Shown one piece after another: positions 6,624-37,705 of a stretch of 64,000 nucleotides of DNA. The stretch lies in NCBI GenBank assembly GCA_031375155.1, contig JANMHM010000012.1, forward strand, positions 2,343 through 66,342. The letters are read 5' to 3'. Made by a program: the position numbers and the translations under genes. Each line of letters opens with the position of its first letter. The first letter of the stretch is position 1. A model generated the notes under the pieces. It saw nothing but the letters and a program-made list of their open reading frames with translations. It searched no databases and was not told the DNA's origin. The stretch is from Candidatus Altimarinota bacterium. GTDB taxonomy: Bacteria; Patescibacteriota; Gracilibacteria; BD1-5; UBA2023.

Positions 6624-6633
6624 TTTTTACTTG

Positions 6634-6677
6634 CCTAAGACCTAAGACCTAAGACCTAAGACCTAAAACCTAAAACC
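6634..6677 (+). repeat. Tandem heptamer array (CCTAAGA)x4 (CCTAAAA)x2
   Basis: Read directly. It ends 7 nt before the rplD ATG. Confidence 0.9.
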
Positions 6678-6684
6678 TCTCTCT

Positions 6685-7308
6685 ATGAAAGCTCCTCTCT
6701 TCGACACTCACGGAAAAAATAAAGGTACTATCGACCTTGAGGCTTCTCACTTTGGAGTCACTCCAAATGAAGGACTCATGCATCGACTCCTTATCCTTCA
6801 GCAGGCTAATGGCCGTATCGCTATAGCTCATACTAAGCATCGTGGTGAGATCCGAGGATCGACAAAGAAGCTTTTCAAGCAAAAAGGCACTGGTAGTGCT
6901 CGTATGGGTGATCGTCGTTCTCCTATGCGTCGTGGAGGAGGTGTCGTCTTTGGTCCTCGAAATGAGAGAAACTTCTCTGTTTCTATGAATGCCAAGGAAC
7001 GCCGTCTAGCTCTCCTTTCTCTTCTATCGACAAAAGCTACAGCAGAAAATATAAAAGTCGTTGAATCATTCGGAAAGGATACTGCGAAGACAAAATGAAT
7101 GGTAGCATTTCTCTCTACTATGGAGGCAAAAAAACCACTCATCGCTATTACTCGTGAAGAGAGATCAGAGATCGCAGGAGCGATGAATCTTCCAGAGCTC
7201 AAAGTCGTCAATATCGAATATCTCAATCCACACTCACTTCTCAAGTATACAGATCTCGTTCTCTCTGAAGCAGCTCTCAAGCACCTCTATACTCACTTTT
7301 CAAAATAA
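6685..7308 (+). CDS. rplD: 50S ribosomal protein L4
   Basis: ORFs 6685-7098 and 7099-7308 are in the same frame, joined by TGA. Confidence 0.95.
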
Positions 7309-7311
7309 ATC

Positions 7312-7400
7312 ATAGAACTTAGAACTTAGACTTTAGAACTTAGGAAAAACTCCGTTCAAATTCTCAGACTCTAAGCTCTAAACTCTAAATCCTAAACTCT
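7312..7400 (+). promoter_or_regulatory. Long imperfect intergenic hairpin (TTAGAAC arm versus CTAAAC arm)
   Basis: The left arm AGAACTTAGAACTTAGACTTTAGAACTTAGG pairs with CTAAGCTCTAAACTCTAAATCCTAAACTCT. I traced about 20 of 30 pairs by hand. Confidence 0.4.
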
Positions 7401-7405
7401 TCCTT

Positions 7406-7699
7406 ATGAACTCTCTCTATTCCGTCATCAAGCGATTCGCTGTCACCAATAAATCTACCGATGGTGAAGTACGTGGTGTATATACATGTTTTATAGATCC
7501 AAGTGCTACGAAGATCGATGTAAAAAATGCATTTAAAACTCTCTACGGAGTCGAGGTCGAGAAAGTAAACGTTCTCATGACTCGCGAGAAATACCATAAT
7601 ACAAAAATCTGAGTGGCTCGAAAAAAAGGCTCAGAAAAGAAAGCTATGGTCACCCTGAAAAATGGTGCAAAAATCGTAAATTTCGACGTCATACAGTAA
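7406..7699 (+). CDS. rplW: 50S ribosomal protein L23
   Basis: ORF 7406-7612 continues through one TGA to TAA 7697. Confidence 0.9.
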
Positions 7700-7732
7700 T
7701 CCTTCATTTCTTCTCTTCTCACTTCCACTCCT

Positions 7733-8575
7733 ATGTGAATCAAAAAGTATAAACCAACTACCCCATCTCGCCGTTTTATGACGGGACTCACCTATGAGGA
7801 GCTCACTACCAATGAGCCATACAAGCCACTTACGACTTTTAAGAAAGATCAAGCAGGCCGTAATCACGCTGGACGTATTTCTGTACGCCATCAGGGCGGA
7901 GGACACAAGAAGCTATACCGTATCGTAGATTTTATCCTCGATAAGTATGATATCCCAGCTCGTGTCGAGAGTGTCGAATATGATCCGTATCGATCTGCAT
8001 TTATTTCTCTTATCTGCTACCGTGATGGAGAACGTCGATACGTCCTCGCTCATACAGAGACTAAGGTCGGAGATGAGATCATCACAGCAAAACTCGCAAA
8101 ACCAGTCCCAGGAAATCGTATGGAAATCGGAAATATCCCGACAGGTCTTCTCGTGCATAATGTAGAAATGATTGTCGGACAGTGAGCTTCTACTATCCGT
8201 TCTGCTGGATCAAGTGCTCTTGTCCTCTCTCAGGAAGGTGAGTATACTCAGCTCAAGATGGCAAGTGGAGAAATCCGTCTTATCCATAAAAATTGCTTTG
8301 CTACTATCGGAACCGTATCGAATGCAGACTGGGATCAGATCACTATAGGTAAAGCAGGACGCAGTCGCTGGATGGGAAAGAGGCCTACAGTTCTCGGATC
8401 ATCTATGAATCCTGTAGATCATCCACACGGAGGAGGTGAAGGTCACCAGTCAGTCGGTCAGAGAAAAGGTCCAAAGACTCCATGGGGAAAACTGGCTCGC
8501 GGTGTCAAGACTCGCTCTCGAAAATATACTGATCGTTGGATTCTGCGTACTCGTGCTGGAAAACTTCAAGGCTAA
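7733..8575 (+). CDS. rplB: 50S ribosomal protein L2
   Basis: ATG 7733, with TGA as codon 2 (MGIKKYKPTTPSRR). ORFs 7778-8185 and 8258-8575 are in the same frame. Confidence 0.95.
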
Positions 8576-8603
8576 TTCTCTCTAAAATCTAAATTTCTCT
8601 CCT

Positions 8604-8867
8604 ATGACTCGTTCGCTCAAAAAATGACCATACATCGACCCGCGTGTGTCGAAAAAAATCGATGCACTCAATGCGAGTGGAAGAAAAAATGTCATCAAGA
8701 CATGGTCTCGAGCCTGTATGATTGCTCCTGAATTCGTCGGACATACCTTCGGTGTGCATAACGGAAAACAACATGTTCCTGTCTTCGTTACAGAAGATAT
8801 GGTAGGACACAAGCTCGGAGAGTTTTCATTTACTCGAAGATTCCAAGGTCATTCCGGAAATAAATAA
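8604..8867 (+). CDS. rpsS: 30S ribosomal protein S19
   Basis: MTRSLKK-G-PYIDP, with TGA 8625-8627 at the conserved Gly. Joins ORF 8646-8867. Confidence 0.95.
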
Positions 8868-8870
8868 TTA

Positions 8871-8975
8871 CCTAAGAACTTAGAACTGAGATTTTAGAAC
8901 TTAGGTACTCCTATGATTCGATCTCAGCTCTAAATCTCAAGTCCTAAGTCCCAAGATCTAAAACCTAAAATCTAC
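8871..8975 (+). promoter_or_regulatory. Long imperfect intergenic hairpin
   Basis: CCTAAGAACTTAGAACTGAGATTTTAGAACTTAGG faces CTCAGCTCTAAATCTCAAGTCCTAAGTCCCAAGATCTAAAACCTAAAATC. Confidence 0.35.
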
Positions 8976-8980
8976 TTTCT

Positions 8981-9307
8981 ATGAAAGCTTCCGTACAAAA
9001 TGTCCGCATCTCACCTAAAAAACTCAATGTGATTGCGTTCATTATCAGAAACATGACAGCAAAAGATGCTCTCGATACTCTCCGATTTATGCCAAAAAAA
9101 GGAGCTGATATCATGCTAAAGGTCCTCTCAAGTGCTGTGGCAAATGCGACTCATAATGATAGTCAAGTTCTCACTGATCTGACGATCTCTTCTGTGAGTG
9201 TCACACAGGGTATCGTCTATAAGCGTATCAATCCAGTTTCTCGAGGACGCGCTCACCGTATCCTCAAGCGTACATCTCATGTCGATCTCTCCCTTTCTGT
9301 AAAATAA
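8981..9307 (+). CDS. rplV: 50S ribosomal protein L22
   Basis: Intact ORF in the conserved position. Confidence 0.9.
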   Translation: MKASVQNVRISPKKLNVIAFIIRNMTAKDALDTLRFMPKKGADIMLKVLSSAVANATHNDSQVLTDLTISSVSVTQGIVYKRINPVSRGRAHRILKRTSHVDLSLSVK

Positions 9308-9326
9308 TTTTTTCTCTTACTCACCT

Positions 9327-9965
9327 ATGTGACACAAAGTCTCACCTCTTGCATTCCGCATCGGATACATCAAAACATGGCGTACTACAGGGTACTATGA
9401 CCGTAATGATTATGCTCTCCATACAGCTCAAGATGTAGCTATCCGTGCACTGGTCATGAAGCACTTCAAGAATCTTCCTCTTGCAAATGTATTTATGAAT
9501 CATAACGGAAATAGTCTCCTTTCTATTATCCTCTTTACTTCTCGTCCTGCGGTGATCCTCGGAACGAATGATGATAATATAAATGGTCTCAAGGATATCC
9601 TCGCAAAGAGATTTCCTGGATATACATTTTCTCTCGAAGTGAAGGAAGTGAAAAAACCGGAGCTCTCAGCTCAGATAGTAGCAGACTCTATCGCTCGTCA
9701 GATCGAGAAAAAGATGCCATATCGTCGAGTGATCAAAAATGCTATCGCAAAAACTATGGAGAAGGGAGGTCTCGGTATCAAAGTAAAACTCGGAGGTCGA
9801 CTCAATGGAGCAGAAATCGCTCGTCGTGAAACCTATAAAGATGGAAGCATCCCATCTCAGACTATCCGGGCTGACGTAGAATTTGCTTACGAAAGAGCAG
9901 AAACTCCATCAGGTACGATCGGACTCAAGGTCTGGATCTATAAAGGTGATGTTTTCAAAAAATAA
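9327..9965 (+). CDS. rpsC: 30S ribosomal protein S3
   Basis: ATG 9327, TGA as codon 2 (MGHKVSPLAFRIGY). Same frame as ORF 9456-9965. Confidence 0.95.
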
Positions 9966-10010
9966 ACTTGCAATTCCGAATTTTTATCTATAATCTTAAC
10001 GATTCTTCTC

Positions 10011-10427
10011 ATGCTACAACCGAGCAGAACAAAATATCGAAAGGCGCAACGTGGAGTCATCAAGGGTCTTGCCACTCGTGGTTCAGACATATCCTTTGGT
10101 GAATTTGCCCTTAAGACAACCGAATCTGGTTACATTACATCTCGACAGATCGAGAGTGCCCGCAAGGCTATCGTCCGCTTTCTCAAGAAGGGAGGACAAC
10201 TCTGGATCCGTATATTTCCTGATAAACCATATACAACTCACGCTGCAGAAGCTCCAATGGGTGGTGGTAAAGGAAGTGTCGAAATGTATCGTGCCCCTGT
10301 AAAACCTGGACGTATTCTCTTTGAAATGGGAGATATCTCTCCAGAAATTGCTAGGGAAGCATTTACGATTGCATCGCATAAGCTTCCGGTAAAAACAAAG
10401 ATTCTCATGTCAAAGAACGAATTCTAA
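10011..10427 (+). CDS. rplP: 50S ribosomal protein L16
   Basis: Intact ORF starting [11 protein letters not shown]. Confidence 0.95.
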
Positions 10428-10461
10428 TATTCATCTGCGACCATCATTACACTCTCTCTTT

Positions 10462-10671
10462 ATGGCAAAAGCAAAAAAAACATCTAAGACTCCAAAAGAC
10501 TTCAAATCTCTCGATAGAGCCGAGCTTACTACAGAGCTTATGGCTTCGAGAAAAGAACTCTTCTCGCTCCGTATGAAGCACTCACTCGGTGAGCTCAAGC
10601 AGCCTCATCTTGTCCGTGTCGCACGCCGAAGTGTGGCTCAGATTTCTACGGCTCTCAGTTCCTCAATCTAA
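10462..10671 (+). CDS. rpmC: 50S ribosomal protein L29
   Basis: Intact 69-aa ORF in the conserved position. Confidence 0.85.
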
Positions 10672-10691
10672 TTTCTTTACTTCAATTTCCT

Positions 10692-10940
10692 ATGCGTACT
10701 AAGACCGGTGTCGTCACAAGTACTAAGATGCAGAAAACTATCGTCGTCACTGTCGATACGTATAAAACGCATCCAAAGTATCAAAAGCGCTACAAATCTT
10801 CTGTAAAATTTTATGCTCATGATGAGAATGGACTCGCAAAACTCGGTGACACTGTCACAGTGAGTGAGACTCGTCCTCTCTCTCGTCTTAAGCGCTGGTC
10901 TCTTATAGAAGATTCTATCGTCTCTACCTCTAGTAAATAA
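10692..10940 (+). CDS. rpsQ: 30S ribosomal protein S17
   Basis: Intact 82-aa ORF in the conserved position. Confidence 0.9.
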
Positions 10941-10952
10941 TTTTCTCACTTT

Positions 10953-11321
10953 ATGATTCAGGCAGAAAGCAGACTCGTAGTCGTGGATAATACAGGTGCT
11001 AAAGAAGTACTCTGTATCAAAGTCCTCAAAGGATCAAAGCGTCGTTATGCGAGCGTCGGTGATATCATCGTCGTCTCTGTGAAGCGTGCACTTCCTAATG
11101 GAAACATCAAAAAGAAAGCCGTATGTAAGGCCGTCATAGTCCGTGTTTCGAAAGAAGTACGTCGTGACGATGGTACTTATGTACGATCAGATGATAATGC
11201 ATGTGTGATTATCGACGATAAGCTCGAACCAAAAGGAACTCGTATTTTTGGACCTGTCTTCCGCGAACTCAAGGCGAGAGGATACCAGAAGATCGTGTCT
11301 CTTGCTCCAGAAGTTGTATAA
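10953..11321 (+). CDS. rplN: 50S ribosomal protein L14
   Basis: Intact ORF starting [18 protein letters not shown]. Confidence 0.95.
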
Positions 11322-11362
11322 TTTGCCCATAAAAAGTCTCTAAAAATATTTCTATTCACTCT

Positions 11363-11665
11363 ATGAAAATCCACAAAGATGATCAGGTCATCGTCATTTC
11401 CGGAAAAGATAAAGGAAAAAAAGCAAAAGTCCTTCGAGCTATTCCTGATAGTAGTACTCTCGTCGTCGAAGGTGTAGGAGTCGTCACTCGTCACATGAAG
11501 CGTCAGGGATCTACTCCTGGACAGAAAGTCACTTTTGAAAAACCGATCAGTGCTTCCAACGTCATGCTTCTCGATCCAAAATCAGGAGAGCCCACTCGTA
11601 TCGGATACAAGATCGAAAATGGAAAAAAAGTCCGATTTGCAAAAAAATCAGGAACGACTCTCTAA
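11363..11665 (+). CDS. rplX: 50S ribosomal protein L24
   Basis: Intact ORF starting MKIHKDDQVIVISGKDKGK. Confidence 0.9.
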   Translation: MKIHKDDQVIVISGKDKGKKAKVLRAIPDSSTLVVEGVGVVTRHMKRQGSTPGQKVTFEKPISASNVMLLDPKSGEPTRIGYKIENGKKVRFAKKSGTTL

Positions 11666-11717
11666 AAAAACACTCATCGTATTATTTACTCTATAGTACA
11701 CCCTTAATCCTCTTCTC

Positions 11718-12257
11718 ATGACTTTCAAAGAACAATACATCAAAAAAATCCTTCCTGAACTTGCAAAAGAACTGGGTATAGAAAATGCTATGCAGATTCC
11801 TCATATCGAAAAAATCGTTCTCAATATGGGTATCGGTACCTATGTGGCTGCTGGGAATAAAGATTTCTCTAGTCTTCGCAATGATCTCGCACTTATCTCA
11901 GGACAACTTCCACGTATTAATCATGCACGTATCGCAATCTCGAACTTCAAACTTCGCGAAGGTATGCCTGTCGGAATGATGGTCACTCTCCGCGGTGAGC
12001 GTATGTTTGCTTTTCTCGAAAAACTTATCGCTATCGTCCTCCCTCGTGTCCGTGACTTTCGTGGTGTTTCTGCTCGTGGTTTTGACCAAGAGGGGAACTT
12101 CAATTTTGGAATCAGAGAACATACGATCTTCCCAGAAGTTCCTCAGCTTGACGTCGTCAAGTCACACGGACTTCAGGTGACGATCAAAATGAAATCATGA
12201 ACTCCAGCTCACTCGAAGGCTCTTCTGGAAAAAATGAGTTTCCCCTTCAGTAAATAA
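11718..12257 (+). CDS. rplE: 50S ribosomal protein L5
   Basis: ORF 11718-12200 continues through TGA to TAA 12255. Confidence 0.95.
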
Positions 12258-12286
12258 TCTTCCCTCTAAAACCTAAATTCCTCTCT

Positions 12287-12511
12287 ATGGCTCGAACAGC
12301 TCTCGTCAATAAATGTAGAAATGCTCAAAATGCAGCATCTCGCGCTCATGACCTCGGTAAAGAACCAAAATTCTCTACTCGACTCTACCACCGTTGCTCA
12401 CACTGTGGTCGATCGAACGGATATATCGGAAAATTCGATCTTTGTCGAATCTGTGTCCGCGAGAAGGCAAATGCCTGAGAACTTATGGGTGTTCGTAAGT
12501 CAAGCTGGTAA
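12287..12511 (+). CDS. rpsN: 30S ribosomal protein S14 (zinc-binding type)
   Basis: CSHCGR...CRIC. Continues through TGA to ...[11 protein letters not shown], with TAA at 12509. Confidence 0.9.
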
Positions 12512-12558
12512 TAGTCGAACCTGGATATACTTTTTACTTCCGTTTTCTCTCTCTTTTT

Positions 12559-12945
12559 ATGATCATCGATCCTATCGCAGATCTTCTCACTCGTATCAGA
12601 AATGGCTACCTTGCTCGTCTTTCGAGTATCGAGGCACCATATTCAAAAATCAAGGCTGAAATCCTCCGAATTCTCAAGAAGAATGGGCATATTGTAGAGT
12701 TTACTCTTTCTGAGGAGACTCATACATTTGTGATCACACTTCATGATGTTCGTAAGACAAAATATGTTCCATCATTTCGTCGAATCTCTCGACCAGGACA
12801 GCGTATCTACGTTCGCTCTACAGAGATCAAAAAATCACGAAATGGAGTCGGTATATTTATCCTCTCTACCCCCAAAGGAATCGTCACAGGATATGAGGCA
12901 CACTCTCTTGGAGTAGGCGGAGAACTTCTCTGTGAGGTGTTCTAG
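12559..12945 (+). CDS. rpsH: 30S ribosomal protein S8
   Basis: Intact ORF starting MIIDPIADLLTRIRNG. Confidence 0.95.
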   Translation: MIIDPIADLLTRIRNGYLARLSSIEAPYSKIKAEILRILKKNGHIVEFTLSEETHTFVITLHDVRKTKYVPSFRRISRPGQRIYVRSTEIKKSRNGVGIFILSTPKGIVTGYEAHSLGVGGELLCEVF

Positions 12946-12980
12946 AATGATAAACCTTAAAAACTTTTAACTCAAATTTT

Positions 12981-13532
12981 ATGTCTCGAATCGGAAAACA
13001 ACCCGTCAAACTTCCTGCAGGAGTTTCTGTAGAGATCACTGCTACGGAAATACAGATCAAAGGATCTAAGGGGAATCTCATGTTTAATATCCTCGAATGA
13101 GTAGCTGTAACGCAAGAAGGAGAAACTCTTCTCGTATCAGTACAAAATCCTGAGAATAAACAACAGCGTGCCTACTGGGGCCTTACTCGTGCCATGCTTC
13201 AAAATATGGTCGTAGGAGTTTCAGATGGATATACGAAGAGTCTCGAAATCATCGGAGTAGGGTATAAATTCGATGTGAAAGGTCCACGAAAGATTGAGCT
13301 TGCTATAGGATTTTCCCATAAAGTAAATGTCGATGCTCCTGAAGGTATCACTATCGAGGCAGATAAGGAAGAAAAAAATAAAATCCACCTTCGTTCTCAT
13401 GATAAGCAACTTCTCGGATACTTCGCTGCTTATATCCGTTCTTTGAAAAAACCAGAACCGTATAAAGGAAAAGGTATTAGATACGTCGGTGAATATGTCC
13501 GCAGAAAGGCAGGTAAGACTGCTGGTAAATAA
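12981..13532 (+). CDS. rplF: 50S ribosomal protein L6
   Basis: ATG 12981 (MSRIGKQPVKLPAGV), one TGA, same frame as ORF 13194-13532. Confidence 0.95.
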
Positions 13533-13568
13533 TTATAGATTCTATTATAAATTATAAAATTACGTTTT

Positions 13569-13910
13569 ATGTTACAGAAAGTCCAAAATCGTCTTCGCCG
13601 AGCCAATCGTGTACGTGCTCGTATCGAATGAACTGCTTCGAAGCCTCGCCTCAGTGTATTTCGTAGTAATACGCATATCACAGCCCAGGCTATCGATGAT
13701 AGTACAGGAGCTACTCTCTGCAGTGCTCATGATATCGCAGCGAAAAAAGGCACAAAATCGGAACGCGCACGTGAAGTCTGAGCTACTATCGCAAAGACTA
13801 TGCTCGAAAAAGGGATCACGGCATGTATATTCGACCGAGGTGGATATCTCTATCACGGACGAGTCAAGGCTCTTGCTGAAGGTGCTCGTGAAGCTGGACT
13901 CACTTTCTAA
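13569..13910 (+). CDS. rplR: 50S ribosomal protein L18
   Basis: ATG 13569 to TAA 13908 with 2 TGA. Motifs [15 protein letters not shown] and [24 protein letters not shown]. No matching L18 ORF appears in the standard-code track. Confidence 0.9.
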
Positions 13911-13946
13911 TACGATCTATTCTCTTCTCTTAATAACTCTCTTTCT

Positions 13947-14747: not shown

Positions 14748-14779
14748 TCCAAAGAATAAAAATCTAAAATCTACTTTCT

Positions 14780-15235
14780 ATGACAACTCTCACTACACTC
14801 AAGCCTACTCCAGGTTCTCTGACTCGTCCACGTCGCGTCGCTCGCGGTGTGAGCTCTGGTCTCTGAGGGACATGCGGACGCGGTATGAATGGTCAAAACT
14901 CTCGTACAGGAAAAGGAAAGCGCTATCCTACATTCGAAGGAGGACAGACTCGACTCTTTATCCGTACTCCGAAAAAGAGAGGATTCACTGCATACGCTCC
15001 GAAGGACTTCGTCACGATCAATCTCGATCAAATCCAGAAGCTCGCTGATGCTGGTATCACGACTGTGGACTACGCAGTCCTCTACGAGCGTCGTATGATC
15101 CGAGAGAAAGGAAAGCTCCTGAAAGTCCTCGGACGAGGTACTCTCACATCGAAGATCGAGCTCATGGCTGACTCCGTCTCTGCTGGTGCTCGTACTATGA
15201 TCGAGAAGGCAGGAGGTAGCGTGACCGTCGCATAA
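14780..15235 (+). CDS. rplO: 50S ribosomal protein L15
   Basis: ATG 14780. SSGL-G-GTCGRGMNGQ with TGA at a Gly position. Same frame as ORF 14885-15235. Confidence 0.95.
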
Positions 15236-15250
15236 ATCAGATATATAAGA

Positions 15251-18997: not shown

Positions 18998-18999
18998 AG

Positions 19000-25879: not shown

Positions 25880-27202
25880 ATGACTAAATATTTCATTATT
25901 TTCATTACATGTTTTTTTCTATTTGCTTGCTCAAATAAGGATATTCTTATAGATCAAGATTCTCATACTTCCTCATGAAAAGAGATGAATATATCTAGTA
26001 CGTGAACTATATCAGGAGAAATTTTGATAAAACGTATTATCCCAGTGGGAACAGATATTGAATATGATAACATATTTGAGCAGTTTGATGATGTAGCACA
26101 AAAATACCAAGATGCTCGTGAGAGACAGGATTATACGTTTTCGAGACAAAAACAGGATGCAGATATTATAGAAAAAAATAAAAATACCTTTATACGACTT
26201 TTTCAAGAAAATAAACTGCCTATTCTACATACTCTAAAAATAGGAGATAAAAAAGTATTTATATCAGCGCCATATGGTAATCATCCAGTAGAAATGTATC
26301 CAGAATGATATGTTTCTTGTTGATTTTACTTTAGTCCGTGAGGATCTTCCACGCATAACATCTGTATGGCATTTACAGATTCAATCGATACAAAACTCAC
26401 TACAGAAATGGTGTTTAGTAGTAGTAACGTAAATTATAATATAATTGCTACGGGCTCTTTCTTTATAAACCATTACTCAGATGGTGATATGTGTGCGAGC
26501 TGAGGTAATTACGCATTATTCGATGAAAATCTAGTAACCATAAGAAACTTAAATTATGTTAACAGTTCATGTAATTTTGTGAGGACATCCTTTTCAAAAA
26601 ATGGATATACTATAGAGTTTCTCGATTCTCACGCAGAAAATCCTTTCGCGACCAGCTCATGAGTCTATATTCCTCGCGCTTCCCATATGAGGATACTCAG
26701 TGGTAGTTTATTCACGGAAAGAGTACTCTATGAGTATGTCTCTCATAGAGTTTGATTCACTTTTGATCCTATAGAGAATACTTTGAATGGTGACACTTTT
26801 GATTTTACTTTTTGATGAAAAAACTTTTCCCTTACTAGAAAAGATATAGAATCTTTCGCGCCATCTTTTATTACCGATGCAAACAAACTTCGTTATCAAT
26901 TTACTCTTTCGGGAGAAGAATGAATTGATGAGGAAATATATGGTCGCTTAATGTGATCTATAACAACCCCAGAAAATAATCGTTATTATGATATTATTTC
27001 GAATATTTCTGTACTATCCTGCCAAAAGAACTCATCACAATACGACGATGAGCCTTATACGCTCTTAACTTATACATGAGGTGAAGTATTTCGATATAAA
27101 ATTGATACAAAATTTTGAAATAAGTGTCCTATTCCATATAATTTTTCTTTTAAAAGTAGTTCGGGAAATACATTTAATACAGCAGTAAAAATAGTCAGAT
27201 AA
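25880..27202 (+). CDS. Hypothetical lipoprotein (440 aa)
   Basis: Lipobox MTKYFIIFITCFFLFAC. I checked frame 2 line by line to TAA 27200. About 16 in-frame TGA. Confidence 0.65.
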
Positions 27203-28991: not shown

Positions 28992-29048
28992 AATATAATG
29001 ATATGTGAAGATACTCTATGGAAAAATGCGAAGAAGTAAAAAGTTTTC

Positions 29049-31517: not shown

Positions 31518-31717
31518 ACGTAAATATTTTTGTGCTCACGAAGAAAGAGATAGTGACTGCAGTGGTCACATTGCTTGTGGTTCAGGACGTGCAGAAGACG
31601 ATGATAATGACACTTAAAAATATTTATAAGAGAGAATATCAGTATATATTACATTTAAATTTTATTTGTCAATATTATTTTCACACTCTTCCGAGAAAGA
31701 CGTACAGAAAGCCACAC

Positions 31718-31764
31718 TTCTGACCACAAAATTTGCTCACACTTTTCCCTTCAGGAAGCCATAG
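31718..31764 (+). repeat. 47-bp direct repeat, copy 2
   Basis: Identical to 27561-27607. Confidence 0.9.
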
Positions 31765-31880
31765 TCAGAGTATACAGAAGAGAGCGCAAGAGATTTTTCG
31801 AAATTGATTTGCATTTACCCCTCTTTTTTATATACTACACGAGCTTATTTTTGTATTTTACTCACCTTTTCAGCATCAGT

Positions 31881-32159
31881 ATGCCGAAAGACGACAAGAT
31901 CGAAGTTGAGGGAAAAGTACTAAAAGCCCTCCCATGAGCCATTTTTGAAGTAGAGCTCCCTGAAGCTTTCTCAAATATGGTGATACGTGCGTATGTCGGT
32001 GGAAAAATGCAGAAAAATAGGATCCGTCTCATCCCCTGAGATACTGTCACTGTCGAGCTCACTCCGTATGATCTTACCCGTGGTCGTATCACATTCCGCA
32101 AGCCAAATGCGAATGCCCCAGTGAGAGTCCCAGGAACCAATAGCAACAATCGTCGATAA
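31881..32159 (+). CDS. infA: Translation initiation factor IF-1 with a C-terminal extension
   Basis: MPKDDKIEVEGKVLKALPGAIFEVEL...RGRITFR, with 2 TGA. About 20 extra C-terminal residues. Not in the standard-code track. Confidence 0.9.
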
Positions 32160-32184
32160 TTCTTTCCTCTAAATACTTACTTCT

Positions 32185-32298
32185 ATGAAAGTCCGTCCAT
32201 CTGTCAAAAAAATCTGTGAAAAGTGTACTGTTATACGCCGTAAAGGTGTAGTACGAGTGATCTGCCAAGAACCAAAACATAAACAACGCCAAGGGTAA
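32185..32298 (+). CDS. rpmJ: 50S ribosomal protein L36
   Basis: [37 protein letters not shown]. Confidence 0.9.
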
Positions 32299-32304
32299 TC
32301 CAAT

Positions 32305-32385
32305 AATTGTAAATGATAAATGTTAAATGATAAATTCATATACCATTCCTCATTTATAATTTATAACTTATAATTTATAATTTCT
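32305..32385 (+). promoter_or_regulatory. AT-rich imperfect intergenic hairpin/repeat region
   Basis: TGTAAATGATAAATGTTAAATGATAAAT faces ATTTATAATTTATAACTTATAATTTATAATTT. Confidence 0.3.
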
Positions 32386-32393
32386 GAAATATT

Positions 32394-32759
32394 ATGGCTC
32401 GTATCGCCGGTGTCAATCTCCCAGACGGGAAACATGCTGAAATCTCTCTTATGTATATATATGGAGTAGGACGTTCTCTCGCACAGAAGATACTTACGAA
32501 AGTAGGAATCGCCTGGAATAAAAAAATGGGTGAACTCACAGAAGCTGAGCTCGACCTTATCCGTGAAGAGCTCAAGGGCTTCATCATCGAAGGTGATCTC
32601 AGACGAGAAGTCTCATCGAATATCAAACGTCTCCAAGATATCGGATGTTACCGAGGATCCCGCCACAAGAAGCGACTCCCAGTCCGTGGTCAGCGTACGA
32701 AAACGAATGCTCGTACTCGAAAAGGAAAGGTTATGACCATCATGAATAAGAAAAAGTAG
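32394..32759 (+). CDS. rpsM: 30S ribosomal protein S13
   Basis: Intact ORF starting [10 protein letters not shown]. Confidence 0.95.
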
Positions 32760-32886
32760 TCAAAATCACAAGAAGTCGAAAAACTCTTACAGGCATGTTT
32801 CCTAAAAAGAAATCTCGCCGAAGCGAGATTATGGGTACTTCCCAAGAACAATACAATACTTCTCTATAAATTTATAATCACTCTCT

Positions 32887-33279
32887 ATGGCAAAAGCTAC
32901 ACTCCGCCGCTCAAAAAAAACTCGTAAAAATGTCCCTGAAGCTGTCATCAGCATCACGGCAACTCTCAATAATACGCACGTCGTCGTCTCTGACCTCTCA
33001 GGACAAGTCCTCACATGGTCTACAGGTGGTACTGCAGGATTCAAAGGAGCACGAGAAGCGACTCCCTATGCAGCTCAGATCACGAGCGAGCAGGCAGTCG
33101 GAAAAGCAAAGACTCTCCATAATGTAGAAAAAGCTCATGTCTACGTGAAGGGTATCGGTGCTGGTCGTGAGCAAGCTATCCGTGGCATCATCAATGCCGG
33201 AGTCGAACTCATCGGTATCTATGATATCACTCCTGTTCCTCATAACGGATGCCGTAAGCGAAAAGCTCGAAAACTCTAG
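32887..33279 (+). CDS. rpsK: 30S ribosomal protein S11
   Basis: Intact ORF with ...PYAAQ...GIGAGREQAIRG. Confidence 0.95.
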   Translation: MAKATLRRSKKTRKNVPEAVISITATLNNTHVVVSDLSGQVLTWSTGGTAGFKGAREATPYAAQITSEQAVGKAKTLHNVEKAHVYVKGIGAGREQAIRGIINAGVELIGIYDITPVPHNGCRKRKARKL

Positions 33280-33315
33280 TCCCAATCCTTCAATTCTACA
33301 TATTAATCTCCCCCT

Positions 33316-33936
33316 ATGCGATATACTGGACCTAAAATGAAACTCTGCCGCCGTGAAGGATACAACCTCTTCGGTGTAGAAAAGTATAATCTCGAAAATA
33401 ATCACCGTAAAGTAAAACGTGCTGGAAAGCTTTCCGAGTTCGGTGTCCAGCTTCGAAAGAAGCAGGCTGCAAAACGTCAGTTCGGACTGACAGAAAAGCA
33501 GTTTTCTCGATATTATTCTCGAGCTGCAAAGACCAATGAGATCACTGGTGATGCTATGCTTCGTCTTCTCGAAACACGCTTCGATACTGTAGTTCTCAGA
33601 GCCAATTTTGCTCGTACGATCATGCAGGCTCGCCAGTGTGTCGGACATGCTCACTTTCTCGTCAACGGAAAAAAAGTAAATATCCCTTCATATGAACTCA
33701 GCGTCGGTGATGTCATCACTCTCAAGGAGCGTATGAAAGAATCAGGACTTTATAAGTCTCTCGTCGAAGAATTCCAAGCTTTTGCTACTAAAAATGCTAC
33801 TGCTCAGGTAAGCGCATCTCGTTGGCTTGCAGTAGATCCAAAGAAACTTTCTATCACGGTCACGGCACTTCCTGAAAAAGGTGATTTTGATCAGATGATC
33901 GATGTCCAGCGTATTGTGGAGTTTTACTCGAAATAA
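33316..33936 (+). CDS. rpsD: 30S ribosomal protein S4
   Basis: Intact ORF starting MRYTGPKMKLCRREG. Confidence 0.95.
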   Translation: MRYTGPKMKLCRREGYNLFGVEKYNLENNHRKVKRAGKLSEFGVQLRKKQAAKRQFGLTEKQFSRYYSRAAKTNEITGDAMLRLLETRFDTVVLRANFARTIMQARQCVGHAHFLVNGKKVNIPSYELSVGDVITLKERMKESGLYKSLVEEFQAFATKNATAQVSASRWLAVDPKKLSITVTALPEKGDFDQMIDVQRIVEFYSK

Positions 33937-33999
33937 TCCCGATATTACTCTTTTCAGAGAGTATCATTTGTCTTTACTCCCTTATTTCCCCTTCGAACT

Positions 34000-34977
34000 A
34001 TGCATATTCTTCACAACACTATCGGAGTTCCAAAAATTCGACGAGAAATCGTCTCTGCTACAGAAGAGCGTTTTATCATCGAACCACTTCCGAGTGGATA
34101 TGGTGTCACTCTCGGTAACTCTCTCCGACGTGTCATGCTCTCATCTATACCAGGAGCACGTGTCACAGGGATCAAGGTCGCAGGTGTTTCTCATGAGTAC
34201 TCGACCCTTCCTGGAGTCCGGGAGTCTATCCTCGATGTGATGCTCAATATGAAAGCTCTTATCGTATCAAAGGACTCTCTCGAGATCGAATGGCTCTCTC
34301 TTTCGAAGAAAAAGGGTGGAGTCGTCACTGGTGCTGATGTGAAGTGTCCTACAGGTGTCACTATCCTCAATCCTGACTGCTATATCACGACGGTCGATGC
34401 TGGATTCGACTTCGCTATGCAGATACGAGTCGAGAAAAATGTCGGGTACGCATCTATCGAAGATCTCAAGAAGCGTGAAGATGATGTCGAAGTTCTCGTA
34501 CTCGATGCGAGCTTCTCTCCGGTACAAAATGTAAAATACGAAGTCAAGACAACTCGCTACGGTGAGATCACGTCTCTCGACTCTCTCGAGATCACTGTCC
34601 GTACAAACGGAGTCATGTCTCCTTCTGAAGTTATGAAGTTCTCTTCGAAGATGCTCGAGTCATACTTCTCACTCTTCAATGAAGATCGTCTTCAGGTGGG
34701 TGGTGAATTTATCTCTGATATCCGTGAAGTGATCGAGCGTGAGAAACAGGAAGTGAAGGCTGATCTCGAAAAGGAGACCTACACTCCGATCGAAATCATG
34801 GGACTTTCTCCTCGTACACTTAATGCTCTTGTCAACGGAGATATCCTTTCTATAGAACAGCTCACAAAATGTACAGAAGCAAAGCTCTCTTCTATAAAAG
34901 GATTTGGAAAAAAAGCGATGACAGAAGTCCGTGATTGCCTCAAGACACGAGGACTCAAACTTCTCTGAGATGACTAG
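34000..34977 (+). CDS. rpoA: DNA-directed RNA polymerase subunit alpha
   Basis: ORF 34000-34968 continues through TGA for 2 more codons to TAG 34975. Confidence 0.95.
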
Positions 34978-35019
34978 TCATTCTCACGTAACTCCCTAAA
35001 AAACTAACAATTCCCCCTT

Positions 35020-35379
35020 ATGCGACACCGAGTCAAAAAACATCTCCACCTCAATGGAAAAGATACAAACCACCGAAATGCTGTGGTCAGAAACCTCCTT
35101 ACGAGTCTTTTTACTCATAAGAGTATCGAGACAACTGAGAAGAAAGCTCTTGCTATGGAAGGAAGCGCACATAAACTCATCGAAATAGCGAAGTCTGAAC
35201 AGACTGACTATAATAAGATCCGAGCTATCAGTGCTGAGCTCTTCACGAAAGAGGCTGGAGTGTCACTCATGACTCTCGCACAAAACTATAAGAATGTACA
35301 CGGAGGATATACTCGTATCACTCCTATCAAGCTTCGTGATGGAGATGCAGCAAAACTCGTAAAAATCGAACTCATATAA
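35020..35379 (+). CDS. rplQ: 50S ribosomal protein L17
   Basis: Intact ORF starting MRHRVKKHLHLNG. Confidence 0.9.
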   Translation: MRHRVKKHLHLNGKDTNHRNAVVRNLLTSLFTHKSIETTEKKALAMEGSAHKLIEIAKSEQTDYNKIRAISAELFTKEAGVSLMTLAQNYKNVHGGYTRITPIKLRDGDAAKLVKIELI

Positions 35380-35454
35380 ATATAAAAGATTCTGAGAAAT
35401 CCCCATTTCTGCCTTCACAGAAATAAAAAAATCTAAAACTCTAAAAAACTCCTT

Positions 35455-35886
35455 ATGAAAACTCTCGTCGCAAAACAAGTCCTCGGTCACGATAGAAAAT
35501 GGTTTATCGTCGATGCTGCTGGAAAAAATCTCGGACGTCTCGCTACTGGGATCGCTCGACTGATCGCTGGTCGAAATCGAGTCGACTATACTCCACACCT
35601 TGATAACGGTGCCTATGTCGTGGTACTTAATGCTGAGAAAGTGACAGTGACAGGAGCGAAGGAAGCCGTGAAGATGTATCGTACTCACTCACAGTATATG
35701 GGTGGACTCAAGGAAACTCCTCTGGCAAAAATGCGTGTAAAAAAACCAACTCACGCTCTCGCTCATGCGATCGAAGGAATGCTCCCAAAGAATAAGCTTC
35801 AATCAAACATGTCGAAGAGACTCAGGCTTGTTATCGGTACAAATCATGAATATGAAGCCCAGAAGCCAGAAACGATCACTCTCTAA
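35455..35886 (+). CDS. rplM: 50S ribosomal protein L13
   Basis: Intact ORF with ...KWFIVDAAGKNLGRLAT. Confidence 0.95.
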   Translation: MKTLVAKQVLGHDRKWFIVDAAGKNLGRLATGIARLIAGRNRVDYTPHLDNGAYVVVLNAEKVTVTGAKEAVKMYRTHSQYMGGLKETPLAKMRVKKPTHALAHAIEGMLPKNKLQSNMSKRLRLVIGTNHEYEAQKPETITL

Positions 35887-35910
35887 TTCTACACTTAATA
35901 CCTACCTTTT

Positions 35911-36306
35911 ATGTCAGAGAAAAATTATACATACGCTGTCGGTCGTCGTAAGACGGCAGTCGCTCAAGTCCGACTCTATAGTGGGAAATGAATGAATACA
36001 GCAAACGGAATGCCACTTGAGACATACGTAAAACGAGCAGATCTTTTTGCTACGATATACGCCCCACTCAAGACTGCAGGAGTCTATGAATGATTTCACT
36101 TTGATGTAAAAGTAGAAGGTTCTGGAGAATCTGCGCAAGCAGAAGCTATCCGACATGCTATCACTCGTGCCCTCGTCGAATCTGATGAAAATCTGAAAAA
36201 AGCACTTAAAGGAGCAGGATTTCTCACTCGTGATCCACGACAAGTCGAGCGTAAGAAGCCAGGTCGTCCAAAAGCACGTAAAGGTCCATCTTGGTCAAAG
36301 CGTTAA
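35911..36306 (+). CDS. rpsI: 30S ribosomal protein S9
   Basis: ATG 35911 to TAA 36304 with 2 [13 protein letters not shown]...[25 protein letters not shown]. Not in the standard-code track. Confidence 0.9.
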
Positions 36307-36339
36307 AACTCGTTATAAAAATTTCAATTATTTTCTCTC

Positions 36340-36759
36340 ATGCCTACTATCAATCAGCTCGTCCGCAGAAAGCGTAAAGATCCGTCTCGAAAGAGTAAGT
36401 CTCCAGCGCTCCAATTCACACGAAACTCTCTCAAAAAAGAGATGTTCCCCCTCTCTGCACCGCAGAGACGAGGAGTATGTCTAAAGGTGTATACTTCGAC
36501 TCCGAAGAAGCCAAACTCTGCTCTCCGAAAGGTAGCAAAAGTACGTCTGACTAATGGGTATGAAGTCATCTCCTATATCGGAGGAGAAGGACATAACCTC
36601 CAGGAGCACTCAGTCGTGATGATCCGTGGTGGACGTGTGAAAGATCTTCCAGGTGTACGTTATCATATCGTACGAGGTCTTCTCGACTGTCAGGGTGTCG
36701 ATAAGCGTGGACAGAGTCGATCTCTCTATGGAGCAAAGAGACCAAAAGTAAAAAAATAA
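36340..36759 (+). CDS. rpsL: 30S ribosomal protein S12
   Basis: Intact ORF starting [12 protein letters not shown]. Confidence 0.95.
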
Positions 36760-36861
36760 TAACCTCCCGAATCAGAATCAAGAAGTGTAAGGTGTGAGTA
36801 TAACATAGCTGTCATAATCTTCCTTCAAATATCTTAATCTTTATTCTAAATTTCCCATTCT

Positions 36862-37317
36862 ATGAGTACTAAAGGAAGCGTATCATTCGCGACACAAAAC
36901 GAAAGACTAAAAAAGTTTGTAAACTATGTTATGAAAGAGGGTAAAAAAACTCTTGCTCATAAAATCATCAATGCAACTTTTGATATTCTCAGACAAAAAG
37001 GTTATACTAATCCTGAAGAAGTCTTCGATAAGGCCCTCGATAATGTCATGCCAAAGATCGAATGTAGGCCAAAACGTGTAGGTGGATCTATCTACCAAGT
37101 ACCTACTGAAGTTCCTCCAGGACGTTCATTTGCCCTTGCTTCTCGCTGGATCCTCGCTGCAGCTCGCGGAAAGAGTGGAAAAGACTTCTCAGTCTTCCTT
37201 GCTCAAGAGATCATAGACGCAGCTACAGAAACGTGAGTAGCAGTCAAAAAGAAGCTCGATGTCTATAAAATGGCAGAAGCGAATAAAGCATTCGCTCGAT
37301 ATGCAAACAATAAATAG
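36862..37317 (+). CDS. rpsG: 30S ribosomal protein S7
   Basis: ORF 36862-37236 continues through TGA to TAG 37315. Confidence 0.9.
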
Positions 37318-37357
37318 AAATTTCATTCTATTAATAATTAACTAACAATTACAGGAT

Positions 37358-37630
37358 ATGGCACATAAAAAAGCGATGTGATCGACCTCGAACGGTCGTG
37401 ATAGTCAAGCCAAAAGACTTGGTGTAAAAATCTACGGATGACGTCCAGCAATCTCTGGAAATATCATCATCAGACAAAAGGGAAATGCCTTCTGGCCTGG
37501 TGCTGGTGTGGAACAAGGAACTGACTTCACTCTTTTCGCTGTACGCGATGGTGTCGTCAACTTTCAGGAGAAGCGTCGTGTCCGATTCGATGGACGTGTC
37601 TACCGTGATATGTACGTATCAGTAGTATAA
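37358..37630 (+). CDS. rpmA: 50S ribosomal protein L27
   Basis: [28 protein letters not shown]..., with 2 TGA. Not in the standard-code track. Confidence 0.9.
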
Positions 37631-37705
37631 TCCAGAACTTAGTATTTAGGACTTGGAGCTTAGAAATATTACTTTCAGTTCTTCCTAATTCCTAAAACCT
37701 AAATT

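Follow-up and report, generated by a model that had tools for sequence, protein, structure and literature searches.

Tandem CTAAAAY heptamer leaders next to start codons in a code-25 bacterium with a degenerate anti-Shine-Dalgarno sequence

The window analysed here is a stretch of 64,000 nucleotides from Candidatus Altimarinota bacterium (contig JANMHM010000012.1), a tiny uncultured organism whose genome uses genetic code 25, with TGA read as glycine, as supported by an in-frame TGA in the conserved gene rplB and by a tRNA-Gly(UCA) encoded in the genome. All coordinates are window positions (C45:8976-9020 corresponds to 6634-6678), the genome is 91% complete, and genes were called with a home-made caller whose only checks were the N-termini of conserved ribosomal proteins and those genes whose start is unambiguous. 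An initial annotation had pointed to a recurrent motif upstream of ribosomal-protein genes and of yebC; all of the quoted sites exist, at most 1 nt from the positions given, at 6662-6674, 8581-8593, 8957-8969, 12265-12277, 14763-14774, 35431-35448 and 37691-37703 on the forward strand and at 51802-51814 on the reverse strand. The gene names L4, S19, L22, S14, L15, L13, L32 and YebC were confirmed, as was the identity of L23 (rplW).

The sites are tandem arrays of the heptamer CTAAAAY, two to seven units long, just upstream of start codons. The rplD (L4) leader carries six heptamers, (CCTAAGA)4(CCTAAAA)2, without a partner arm (6634-6675, forward strand as are all loci below except yebC), followed by the pyrimidine run CCTCTCTCT (6676-6684) and the ATG at 6685; TRF reports period 7, 6.4 copies and 97% match for 6634-6678, and the leader has a minimum free energy (MFE) of 0 kcal/mol, with 200 of 200 shuffles folding at least equally well. 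The two heptamers of the rpsS (S19) leader, TCTAAAATCTAAA (8581-8593), stand 10 nt before the ATG at 8604 and belong to the same single-stranded class (MFE = 0 for 8576-8606), while in rpsN TCTAAAACCTAAA (12265-12277) stands 9 nt before the ATG at 12287, with orthologous arrays in genomes G009, G010, G005 and G006. Upstream of rplO the array is a degenerate two-unit one, TCTAAAATCTAC (14763-14774, ATG 14780), and the same site in relatives holds 2-4 full units plus a hairpin; the rplM leader TCTAAAACTCTAAAAAAC (35431-35448, ATG 35455) has a spacing of 8 nt instead of 7. On the reverse strand, yebC is preceded by CCTAAGTTCTCAATCCTAAAACCTAAGTTCTCAAATTT-ATG (51791-51838, MFE of the leader -0.2 kcal/mol).

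At other loci the array is predicted to form the 3' arm of a long imperfect hairpin. In the rplD-rplW intergenic region, a 5' arm of the form (AGAACTT)n...AGG (7313-7344) faces the four heptamers TCTAAGC, TCTAAAC, TCTAAAT and CCTAAAC (7370-7398) ahead of the rplW ATG at 7406; the fold of 7309-7408 has -17.2 kcal/mol (z -2.7) and leaves the final 21 nt upstream of the ATG unpaired in the MFE structure. The rpsS-rplV hairpin (8872-8955; 5' arm CTAAGAACTTAGAACTGAGATTTTAGAACTTAGG, 3' arm TCAGCTCTAAATCTCAAGTCCTAAGTCCCAAG; -20.1 kcal/mol, z -1.8) is followed by the free heptamers TCTAAAACCTAAAATC (8957-8972), which end 8 nt (CTACTTTC) before the ATG at 8981, the final 28 nt being unpaired. Upstream of rpmF (L32), a hairpin at 37633-37705 (-14.0 kcal/mol, z -1.6) has the 5' arm CAGAACTTAGTATTTAGGACTTGGAGCTTAGAA and, as 3' arm, the heptamers TTCCTAATTCCTAAAACCTAAATT adjoining the ATG at 37706. 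A second heptamer family, composed of A and T only, precedes rpsM as (TAAATGA)n ... (ATTTATA)n (32305-32383, detected by TRF at C45:34652-34725, ATG 32394), with a hairpin of -15.3 kcal/mol (z -2.9) and 35 nt free upstream of the ATG. Genome-wide, about nine arrays form such a 3' arm, in interrupted stems of 25-35 bp that lie between cistrons or ahead of tRNAs and leave the last 13-35 nt before the ATG free; the majority of arrays lack a partner arm, and for these a fully unstructured state is predicted. Since tRNA genes lie downstream of three hairpin-type copies, one of which sits between two tRNAs, the hairpin form is not purely a translation signal.

These leaders belong to a genome in which the anti-Shine-Dalgarno (anti-SD) core of the 16S rRNA is degenerate. 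The 16S tail reads GGACUAUCUCUUUA, with UCUCU where CCUCC is expected, and the CCUCC core was likewise missing in 19 of 19 relatives checked, from three families of the order. Of the -20..-1 windows of 1086 starts, 4.0% contain an SD-like 4-mer, compared with 16.7% of random 20-mers, so that the alternative of an intact CCUCC with SD sequences at most other genes does not describe this genome. The absence of GGAGG-like elements noted initially also held in the window, GGA being found within -20..-1 at 1 of 44 starts between 6000 and 38000, the single exception being rpmA with AGGA at -6..-3.

In place of an SD sequence, leaders are short, almost free of G and unstructured, with T at -1, pyrimidines at -2 to -10 and an A-run at about -11 to -14. 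Genome-wide, G makes up 2-9% at positions -1 to -20, T reaches 69% at -1, and A is high across -11 to -13, with a peak of 45-48% at -11; the profile is alike whether drawn from the 392 genes whose starts are unambiguous or from all 1087. In a set of 29 ribosomal-protein genes, 26 have T at -1, 21 have C at -6 and 20 have A at -11. The description of the 10 nt before the ATG as almost purine-free is accurate for G (2% in 29 ribosomal-protein and rpoA genes, with 82% pyrimidine) and overstated for A, which makes up 16% in these genes and 20-39% at -2 to -10 genome-wide. Start regions (-30..+10) have a mean MFE of -2.2 kcal/mol, versus -5.7 for coding windows, and those carrying the heptamer average -0.7 kcal/mol. 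A subset of genes appears to be leaderless.

The association of the arrays with starts is genome-wide; a lack of such enrichment had been named beforehand as the result that would refute the motif. CTAA recurs at period 7 in 94 cases as against about 10 for every other spacing, a periodicity to which YCTAAAAYCTAAA belongs, and 47 of the 94 fall inside -40..-1 windows; CTAA-N3-CTAA is found within -40..-1 of 26 of 1086 genes, compared with 1.6 in shuffles (maximum 7). Within the window, YCTAAAAYCTAAA with at most one mismatch has 9 matches against 0.58 expected, a number reached in 0 of 100 shuffles. No strict cluster (0 of 28) lies within coding sequence, and the last unit ends 9-14 nt before the ATG in 15 of 27 genes; array phase relative to the ATG is non-random (p = 0.001), in a test chosen post hoc with the data already seen. 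Arrays are carried by 6 of 29 ribosomal-protein genes and 20 of 1057 others (odds ratio 13.5, p = 3e-5), and further carriers include tig, infC, pnp, aspS, gltX, obg, atpG, rpmB and rplJ. They are not required, since about 97% of genes, including most ribosomal-protein genes, do without.

The arrays extend beyond this genome. Three-unit arrays are present in 9 of 11 other genomes of the genus, and orthologous rplD, rplW, rpsS, rpsN and rplO sites hold 2-6 copies or none, absence in some congeners being in keeping with dispensability. In other phyla, at least 120 stretches of (CTAAAAT)n with 3.5 units or more were found, mostly in cyanobacteria and Flavobacterium, the Flavobacterium arrays lying 5-7 nt upstream of ATGs; of 93 arrays, 35 have an ORF start within 40 nt downstream in sense orientation, compared with 3 in antisense (p = 7e-8). 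CTAAAAY is itself the most frequent unit in a broader class of tandem heptamers, whose other units occur both in this genome and in its relatives. The view that the motif is a dedicated signal rather than chance therefore stands in part: the arrays are non-random, sense-oriented, bound to starts at highly expressed genes and conserved in the genus, but they are not one fixed signal, given the wider heptamer class, the variable copy number and the presence or absence at orthologous sites.

The reading we prefer, to which we assign a probability of roughly 0.55 as a whole, is that translation start in this lineage proceeds without mRNA-rRNA pairing and that the arrays, born of slippage, free of G and unstructured, serve as leader modules for SD-independent initiation. 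CTAAAAY arrays would arise by replication slippage and then be retained in the SD-less start context, where they would supply G-free, non-self-pairing RNA directly 5' of the start codon, their A-runs falling in the -10..-14 window and once more 7 nt upstream. Ribosomal protein S1 and the mRNA channel, and not base pairing, would then let the 30S subunit take hold of this unpaired RNA. Retention would be preferential before genes needing high initiation rates, with slippage causing copy number to drift. Where an inverted array copy lies upstream, the two would form the long imperfect hairpin, which is probably an intercistronic stability or processing element outside start-site recognition; the hairpins may accordingly be processed. 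Position and structure are the basis for a role in initiation or processing, and from them we infer that the arrays raise initiation. S1, whose gene is present with four domains, is probably the reader. In SD-less Flavobacterium johnsoniae an A-rich stretch at -11..-14, near S1, promotes initiation (PMC6847099). Both S1 and cold-shock proteins (Csp) have been proposed as readers of the TAACTGA repeats (PMC4679880), but no cold-shock-domain gene was detected in the 91%-complete genome, which argues against Csp here. The sequence specificity of S1 is reported to be weak (discussed in PMC4679880), and this counts against S1 reading in that it leaves the dominance of a single unit unexplained.

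A distinctly less probable, though possible, reading is that the arrays are neutral or selfish DNA, namely slippage heptanucleotide repeats together with small MITE- or REP-like palindromes with no function of their own, piling up in leaders because these are nearly the sole non-coding space, with only G-free, stop-containing units tolerated next to the start codon. The variation in copy number and presence within the genus agrees with it, as do the copies before and between tRNA genes, the many other gene-specific leader heptamers (51 lag-7 windows after removal of CTAA arrays versus 25-43 at other lags) and near-identical hairpins at several loci of one genome, suggesting paralogous spread. 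Among the long simple-sequence repeats of prokaryotes, heptanucleotides are also the most frequent kind (Mrazek et al. 2007, cited in PMC4679880), and isolates of Flavobacterium psychrophilum differ in their heptamer VNTRs, AAATCTA and ATTTTAG among them, which range from 1 to 9 copies (PMC4501049). Neutral amplification would, however, be expected to take up each locus's own word, and one unit recurs at more than 26 loci; nor does it account for the 13-fold enrichment at ribosomal-protein genes, the proximity to the ATG even in long spacers, the strong sense bias in distant phyla or the few copies beyond 5' leaders (about 8 of 51 clusters).

It is unlikely that the elements serve chiefly in mRNA processing or stability, with the hairpins as RNase III sites or exonuclease barriers dividing polycistronic transcripts into segments with defined ends and the single-stranded heptamers binding a dedicated RNA-binding protein. 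An RNase III gene lies in the window (42817-43581), the roughly nine intercistronic and tRNA-proximal stems would suit such a role, and in the hairpin family of relatives an apical UUCUA-GAAA-UAGAA mini-hairpin is kept, with one covarying pair (UA 5, CG 4, UG 3) and 83% of cells pairing in the proposed register versus 15-48% with the register slid. The long stem is nevertheless conserved without covariation, the hairpins are of modest stability (z -1.6 to -2.9), and the partner arm is missing from most arrays. A re-coded SD/anti-SD pair, in which the motif or pyrimidine tract pairs with the altered 16S tail or another exposed 16S segment, is conceivable since the tail has changed from CCUCC to UCUCU, but is effectively refuted: complements of the tail (AGAGA, AAGAG, GAGAU) are depleted upstream of starts (2.2% versus 9%), leaders have the same sense as the tail rather than its complement, and the array-tail duplex reaches -1.5 kcal/mol. 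Complementarity of the motif elsewhere in 16S, raised initially, was not borne out either, no 6- or 7-nt complement of any unit being present and the array-16S duplex (-9.7 kcal/mol) equalling the mean of shuffled arrays (-9.75).

Several known systems resemble these leaders. Cyanobacterial STRR heptamers are 7-bp tandem intergenic repeats of variable copy number, and the REP/BIME elements of enterobacteria are multi-copy imperfect hairpins between genes of the same operon, thought to stabilise upstream mRNA; here, in contrast with REP/BIME, the hairpin arms are built of heptamer repeats and the 3' arm continues, single-stranded, as the leader of the next start codon. Start-codon-adjoining heptamer repeats have been published for marine Beggiatoaceae, some cyanobacteria and Bacteroidetes, where TAACTGA units (MacGregor 2015, PMC4679880), as here, occur in tandem (2-6 copies), intergenic and in sense, ending a few nt upstream of start codons in place of an SD, inside ribosomal-protein operons and before pnp; both kinds are excluded from coding sequence because the units contain stop codons. 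The present arrays differ in their unit, CTAAAAY or CTAAGAC, and in their host, a code-25 member of the candidate phyla radiation with a degenerate anti-SD (normal in Beggiatoaceae); about a quarter of them have an inverted partner with which they form a hairpin, compared with one indirect repeat in 170 sets (PMC4679880). Heptanucleotide SSRs and VNTRs are likewise 7-bp, tandem, intergenic and variable in copy number between strains or species, the F. psychrophilum units AAATCTA and ATTTTAG being the same word as the unit here (PMC4501049); in these reports they figure as markers or mutational products, with no tie to start codons or SD loss (Mrazek et al. 2007, cited in PMC4679880; PMC4501049). 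Flavobacterium johnsoniae and other Bacteroidia share the lack of SD, the A at -11..-14 and the low structure around the start, but their anti-SD is intact and sequestered by bS21, bS18 and bS6, and they favour A at -3 and -6 (Baez et al. 2019, PMC6847099), whereas here the anti-SD is mutated, -1..-3 are pyrimidines and -6 is C in ribosomal-protein genes.

Loss of SD and anti-SD has already been published for sister lineages, with a 16S tail without CCUCC and SD in a few percent of genes, as here; the list in the consulted part of PMC10783764 includes Absconditabacteria (SR1) and Peregrinibacteria and does not include the present genus, and leader motifs are not described in that part. The CTAAAAY leaders are a further example of a repeat type known from SD-poor bacteria and not a new kind; to the list in that part of PMC10783764 the present analysis adds that anti-SD loss spans all of the relatives checked across the order.

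The genome under study (G000) amounts to 1.24 Mb in 59 contigs, of which C45 carries the window (C45:2343-66342), and it uses genetic code 25, as is apparent from in-frame TGA codons inside conserved ribosomal proteins (two in rplB); a tRNA-Gly with the anticodon UCA, the decoder to be expected where TGA is read as glycine, is encoded at C48:35476-35554. Genes were predicted with a caller made for this analysis, based on dicodon log-likelihoods, greedy selection of non-overlapping frames and iterative refinement of starts, which predicted 1087 genes that together take up 82% of the genome. As a guard against circularity, start profiles were computed both on a set of 392 genes for which no start competing with the first ATG lies within 60 nt and on all genes, the two profiles being concordant, and the starts of ribosomal-protein genes were additionally fixed by N-termini conserved in 20 relatives. 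The gene names assigned in the initial annotation proved right when checked by protein identity; the gene preceding rpmF is rpmA (L27). Two long code-25 ORFs of 440 and 540 aa (window 25880-27202 and 41096-42718), each with 14-15 TGA codons, score poorly in the dicodon model and were omitted from the gene calls; their composition may be atypical, or their origin foreign.

The sole 16S rRNA gene (C48:13757-15229, minus strand) has a 3' tail, GGACUAUCUCUUUA, without CCUCC: the gene ends in ...GCGGAUGGACUAUCUCUUUA, whereas its E. coli counterpart reads GGAUCACCUCCUUA, and the CCUCC core is therefore UCUCU in G000, so that the loss of the anti-Shine-Dalgarno (anti-SD) sequence suspected in the initial annotation is real. 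CCUCC is absent from the 16S tails of all 19 relatives with a 16S gene, across the order, their endings being UCUCUUUA, UCUCCUUA or CCUCUUUU. At positions -20 to -1, GGAG, GAGG or AGGA is found in 4.0% of starts compared with 16.7% of random genomic 20-mers. The complement of the genome's own 16S tail is depleted there as well (2.2% vs 9% of random genomic 20-mers), which rules out an altered SD pairing with the new tail. In the ribosomal-protein region (window 6000-38000), described earlier as devoid of GGAGG-like elements, GGA occurs in -20 to -1 at only one of 44 starts, namely that of rpmA, with AGGA at -6 to -3. This gene shares an atypical context, CAGGAT-ATG, with an 830-aa gene starting at 38582 (window 37318-37357 and 38497-38581), these contexts being the only SD-like 4-mers close to starts thereabouts. 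In having a tail without CCUCC and SD at 4.0% of genes, G000 resembles the SD-scarce organisms of class iv (PMC10783764). Loss of both SD and anti-SD is already known from sister lineages and is not new in kind; Gracilibacteria are also often without bS21 (PMC9297842).

The start regions are poor in G, which makes up 2-9% of positions -1 to -20 vs 21% genome-wide. T stands at -1 in 69% of starts, positions -2 and -3 are mostly C and T (65% pyrimidines and 27% A at -3), and A reaches its maximum of 45-48% at -11, with approximately 40% at -13. For the 29 ribosomal-protein and rpoA genes of the window, pyrimidines account for 82% of positions -10 to -1, A for 16% and G for 2%, meaning that the description of these 10 nt as almost purine-free is correct for G and overstated for A; positions -1, -6, -11 and -18 hold T, C, A and A in 26, 21, 20 and 19 of these genes, respectively. 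The top enriched upstream words are TTTCTC, TTTTCT, TTTCTCT, the -10-like TATACT and TATAAT, and CTAAAA. Predicted folding of 40-nt windows gives a mean MFE of -2.2 kcal/mol around the start (-30 to +10), as against -5.7 in coding sequence (+150 to +190) and -4.1 upstream (-75 to -35), and by this calculation start regions are only slightly structured.

In Flavobacterium johnsoniae, which does not use SD, an A-rich stretch at -11 to -14, sited near protein S1, promotes initiation (PMC6847099). G000 is similar to this Bacteroidia type of SD-independent initiation (PMC6847099, PMC7797042) in its A enrichment at -11 to -14 and its low start structure, but in the Bacteroidia the anti-SD is intact, with bS21, bS18 and bS6 sequestering it, and A is favoured at -3, whereas in G000 the anti-SD is mutated and A at -3 reaches only 27%. 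In another set of 46 genes genome-wide, distinct from those with the heptamer arrays described below, the ATG is preceded at exactly 6 nt by TAYAMT, a -10-like box, compared with 15, 14 and 10 occurrences at 7, 8 and 9 nt and two and one at 4 and 5 nt. This spacing would be the geometry expected of leaderless mRNAs; an example is the gene starting at window 48784 (leader ...ttcatatatctccc-ATG). A second, broad hump of TAYAMT at 22-31 nt before ATG suggests leaders of 15-25 nt.

The recurrent leader motif of the initial annotation, YCTAAAAYCTAAA, has nine matches in the window against 0.58 expected, and the regularity underlying it is CTAA every 7 nt, in tandem arrays of heptamers among which CTAAAAY is the most frequent of several units. 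Genome-wide, CTAA-N3-CTAA occurs 94 times compared with 0-14 (about 10) at other spacers, apart from the 60 at period 14 that are expected from arrays; 47 of the 94 fall within the -40 to -1 windows, which represent less than 2% of the sequence. The arrangement is present in -40 to -1 of 26 out of 1086 genes vs 1.6 in shuffles (maximum 7), and what had been noticed in the window is thereby confirmed there and holds genome-wide as an enrichment upstream of starts. None of 28 strict clusters overlaps coding sequence, and the antisense form, TTAG-N3-TTAG, is nearly missing from -40 to -1. Arrays consist of 2-7 units (period 7 by TRF) and end 1-25 nt before ATG in 26 of 27 cases; the end of the last unit falls 9-14 nt ahead of ATG in 15 of 27 genes, which places the unit's A-run in the A-rich -10 to -14 stretch, and 1-6 nt ahead of it in eight. 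The distance to ATG modulo 7 is 3-5 in 20 of 27 genes (p = 0.001, for bins picked post hoc).

Arrays are carried by rplD, rplW, rpsS, rplV, rpsN, rpmF, rpmB, rplJ, tig, infC, pnp, aspS, gltX, obg, atpG, secF, recF, yebC and a few nameless genes, with a 13-fold enrichment at ribosomal-protein genes (6/29 vs 20/1057 others, p = 3e-5). Most of them lack a partner arm, and no structure is predicted for them: the MFE of the rplD leader is 0, which each of 200 shuffles equals or betters. No GGA is found in the array leaders of the window. Once the CTAA arrays are removed, exact 5-mer repeats at lag 7 are found in 51 leaders vs 25-43 at other lags, and other leader heptamers of the genome include TTTCACT, CTTTACA (recA) and ATTCGTA (trx). 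An A/T-only heptamer family, (TAAATGA)n ... (ATTTATA)n, makes up a hairpin between rpmJ and rpsM (window 32305-32383, z -2.9); similar AT heptamers, CATAATT and TTATAAT, precede rpsN in the relatives G002, G004 and G011. A very basic 28-aa ORF (MPRLTTYAHKKLKKAVTRINKKMQKTKK), located 11 nt after a heptamer pair on the C48 minus strand (~46013-46120, minus-strand coordinates), may represent an unannotated small protein.

An inverted array is found upstream at about nine loci (rplW, rplV, rpmF, rpmB, rplJ, atpG and three tRNA genes), with an arm of the form (TTAGnnn)n or, before rpmB, (AGATTnn)n, and the predicted stem of 25-35 bp is composed of 5-bp helices with 1x1 or 2x2 mismatches between them. 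The window hairpins before rplW, rplV and rpmF have MFE values of -14 to -20 kcal/mol (z -1.6 to -2.7), and in four folds (rplW, rplV, rpmF and rpsM) the last 13-35 nt before ATG are unpaired. One hairpin sequence family, (AGATTNN)n-TTCYAGAAATRGAA-N10-(ATCTAAA)n, which may be of the REP- or MITE-like kind, is shared by the congeners G005, G006, G009 and G010 and by rpmB of G000, this being its single copy in G000, whose remaining hairpins differ in sequence. In an alignment of 12 copies from five genomes (77% column identity), 83% of the cells of the long stem pair vs 15-48% in slid registers; the apical mini-hairpin UUCUA-GAAA-UAGAA has one covarying pair (UA 5, CG 4, UG 3), and no covariation beyond conservation was detected in the long heptamer stem of this family. 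An intrinsic terminator role of the hairpins was rejected, given the missing U-tract and the presence of ordinary GC-rich terminators with T-runs elsewhere in the window. A gene for RNase III is located at window 42817-43581. Since three hairpin copies precede tRNA genes, including one amid tRNA-Arg/tRNA-Leu and one amid rpmB/tRNA-Leu, the hairpin form is no pure translation signal. Of the proposal that the motif is a dedicated initiation or processing signal and not chance, the enrichment and the link to starts have stood, while its dedication is qualified by these tRNA-associated copies.

Of the 11 other genomes of the genus, nine have three-unit arrays; outside it, such arrays occur in 6 of 13 other family members and in 4 of 16 genomes belonging to the remaining two families, mostly in low counts. 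S10-spc operons were fetched from 20 relatives for site-by-site comparison: TCTAAAA arrays precede rplD, rplW, rpsS, rpsN and rplO in many congeners, with 2-6 copies or none per site, and one genome has ten arrays within 10 kb. In other lineages these sites carry other words, among them ACTAATC/ACTATCC (G023, G002), CATAATT (G002, G004, G011) and, in a second family, TTTGTAA. In locus L021, from a genome of another family of the order (G027), (TTTGTAA)3 adjoins the rplB start; lineage-specific heptamer leaders therefore reach past the genus. Five congeners (L005, L008, L010, L011 and L013, ~7800-8010 of the oriented loci) have before an spc-operon gene a structured element that is conserved among them, GGTTGCTAGAGGATAGGGGACAGAGGATGGTGATGCTACGCCTTTCCCCCCACTC, with heptamers after it; G000 lacks this element, which may be a ribosomal-protein leader.

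A cross-phylum scan for exact (CTAAAAT)3.5, with one genome per species, found at least 120 stretches. Among the matches listed, Microcoleus, Nostoc, Calothrix, Lyngbya, Symploca and Flavobacterium account for the majority, and Chryseobacterium, Ignavibacteria, Acidobacteriota and Oscillochloris for single cases. In 35 of the 93 arrays among the matches listed, the 40 nt downstream in the sense orientation contain an ATG that begins an ORF of 60 aa or more, vs 3 of 93 in the opposite sense (p = 7e-8). In Microcoleus (loci L044-L123 being from Microcoleus and other cyanobacteria), (CTAAAAT)4-6 forms the central part of a dispersed repeat of composite make-up, GCCCCCGnATTTATCCGTGGGGTC-AAT-(CTAAAAT)n-CGAnTGAC, in which a GC-rich hairpin precedes and CGAnTGAC follows the array; where the n of CGAnTGAC makes an ATG, this ATG opens a real ORF 3 nt past the array.

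Repeats of this kind have been described from Beggiatoaceae, cyanobacteria and Bacteroidetes as TAACTGA direct repeats, which occur in 2-6 copies a few nt upstream of start codons in place of SD, within operons for ribosomal proteins and ahead of pnp, and for which S1, Csp and CsrA are candidate readers (MacGregor 2015, PMC4679880). According to work as quoted in that paper, heptanucleotides are the commonest long simple-sequence repeats of prokaryotes, possibly owing to polymerase slippage. A Nostoc preprint has reported different heptamers at start codons, with unclear effects. Our literature search on the exact heptamer word returned only a study of F. psychrophilum VNTRs, which are mostly 7-bp, intergenic and present in 1-9 copies, AAATCTA and ATTTTAG among them (PMC4501049), and found no description of heptamer leader arrays in Gracilibacteria. 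The G000 arrays resemble the TAACTGA type (PMC4679880) in being tandem 7-nt units in two or more copies, intergenic, in sense orientation and ending close upstream of start codons, within leaders without SD; they differ in the unit, CTAAAAY or CTAAGAC, and are thus of the same kind with another word. To a described but unexplained kind of repeat they add a word and a lineage that are both new, along with a hairpin variant that occurs frequently.

Several roles for the arrays can be set aside. A promoter or DNA-binding site is unlikely because many arrays lie inside the S10-spc operon. Stops in all three frames were rejected as a selected property, most arrays having just two units and published heptamers such as TTCAAAA being stop-free; the TAA every 7 nt in most units is left as a side effect that excludes arrays from coding sequence. 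Complementarity of the motif to 16S outside the tail, raised in the initial annotation, did not materialize: 16S contains no 6-mer complement of any unit, the array duplex over the whole molecule has an energy of -9.7 kcal/mol vs a shuffled mean of -9.75, and that with the tail alone -1.5 kcal/mol. Array-rRNA pairing, with a duplex energy equal to that of shuffled arrays, is thereby excluded insofar as sequence can show. A four-domain, 374-aa S1 protein is encoded on the minus strand of C16 at 4070-5377, and no cold-shock-domain gene was found in the assembly (91% complete), which disfavours a cold-shock protein, as suggested by MacGregor, as heptamer reader.

The best-supported reading of the arrays, from their sequence and placement, would be that of slippage-born, G-free, non-self-pairing leader modules. 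Such modules would hold the start region open and contribute an A-run at -10 to -14, S1 and the mRNA channel would act as their readers, and they would be kept where initiation must be high, and the hairpin versions would contribute to intercistronic stability or processing as well. In the main rival reading, the arrays do nothing by themselves and are simple-sequence or mobile DNA that the genome tolerates; however, a single word recurs across many loci, arrays are enriched at ribosomal-protein genes and placed at the ATG-proximal end of spacers, and their orientation is biased across phyla, all of which makes this rival less likely. The reading as leader modules can be taken further in a speculative form that we consider rather unlikely: (CUAAAAU)n, along with its sister heptamers, would serve across phyla as a genuine SD substitute, a single-stranded landing pad offering one heptamer per S1 OB-fold domain, with the initiation rate set by copy number and phase to the AUG and tunable by slippage, and having arisen independently or spread in candidate-phyla-radiation bacteria, cyanobacteria and Bacteroidota, lineages that have given up SD pairing.

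How ribosomes choose start codons without SD is still a question for the Bacteroidota, for many cyanobacteria and for a large part of the candidate phyla radiation. G000 is a clean small-genome case in this respect: the anti-SD has been lost order-wide (19 relatives checked), the leaders are G-free, and ribosomal-protein genes, a third of the array-bearing genes, are marked by one heptamer word. The word CTAAAAT also precedes start codons in Flavobacterium and in filamentous cyanobacteria, both genetically manipulable, and the idea is therefore testable in these hosts although the organism of G000 is uncultured. In such genomes, starts will be wrongly placed by gene callers that depend on SD motifs; for their annotation, T at -1, the context of pyrimidines and A at -11, and the leaderless signature can serve as guides.
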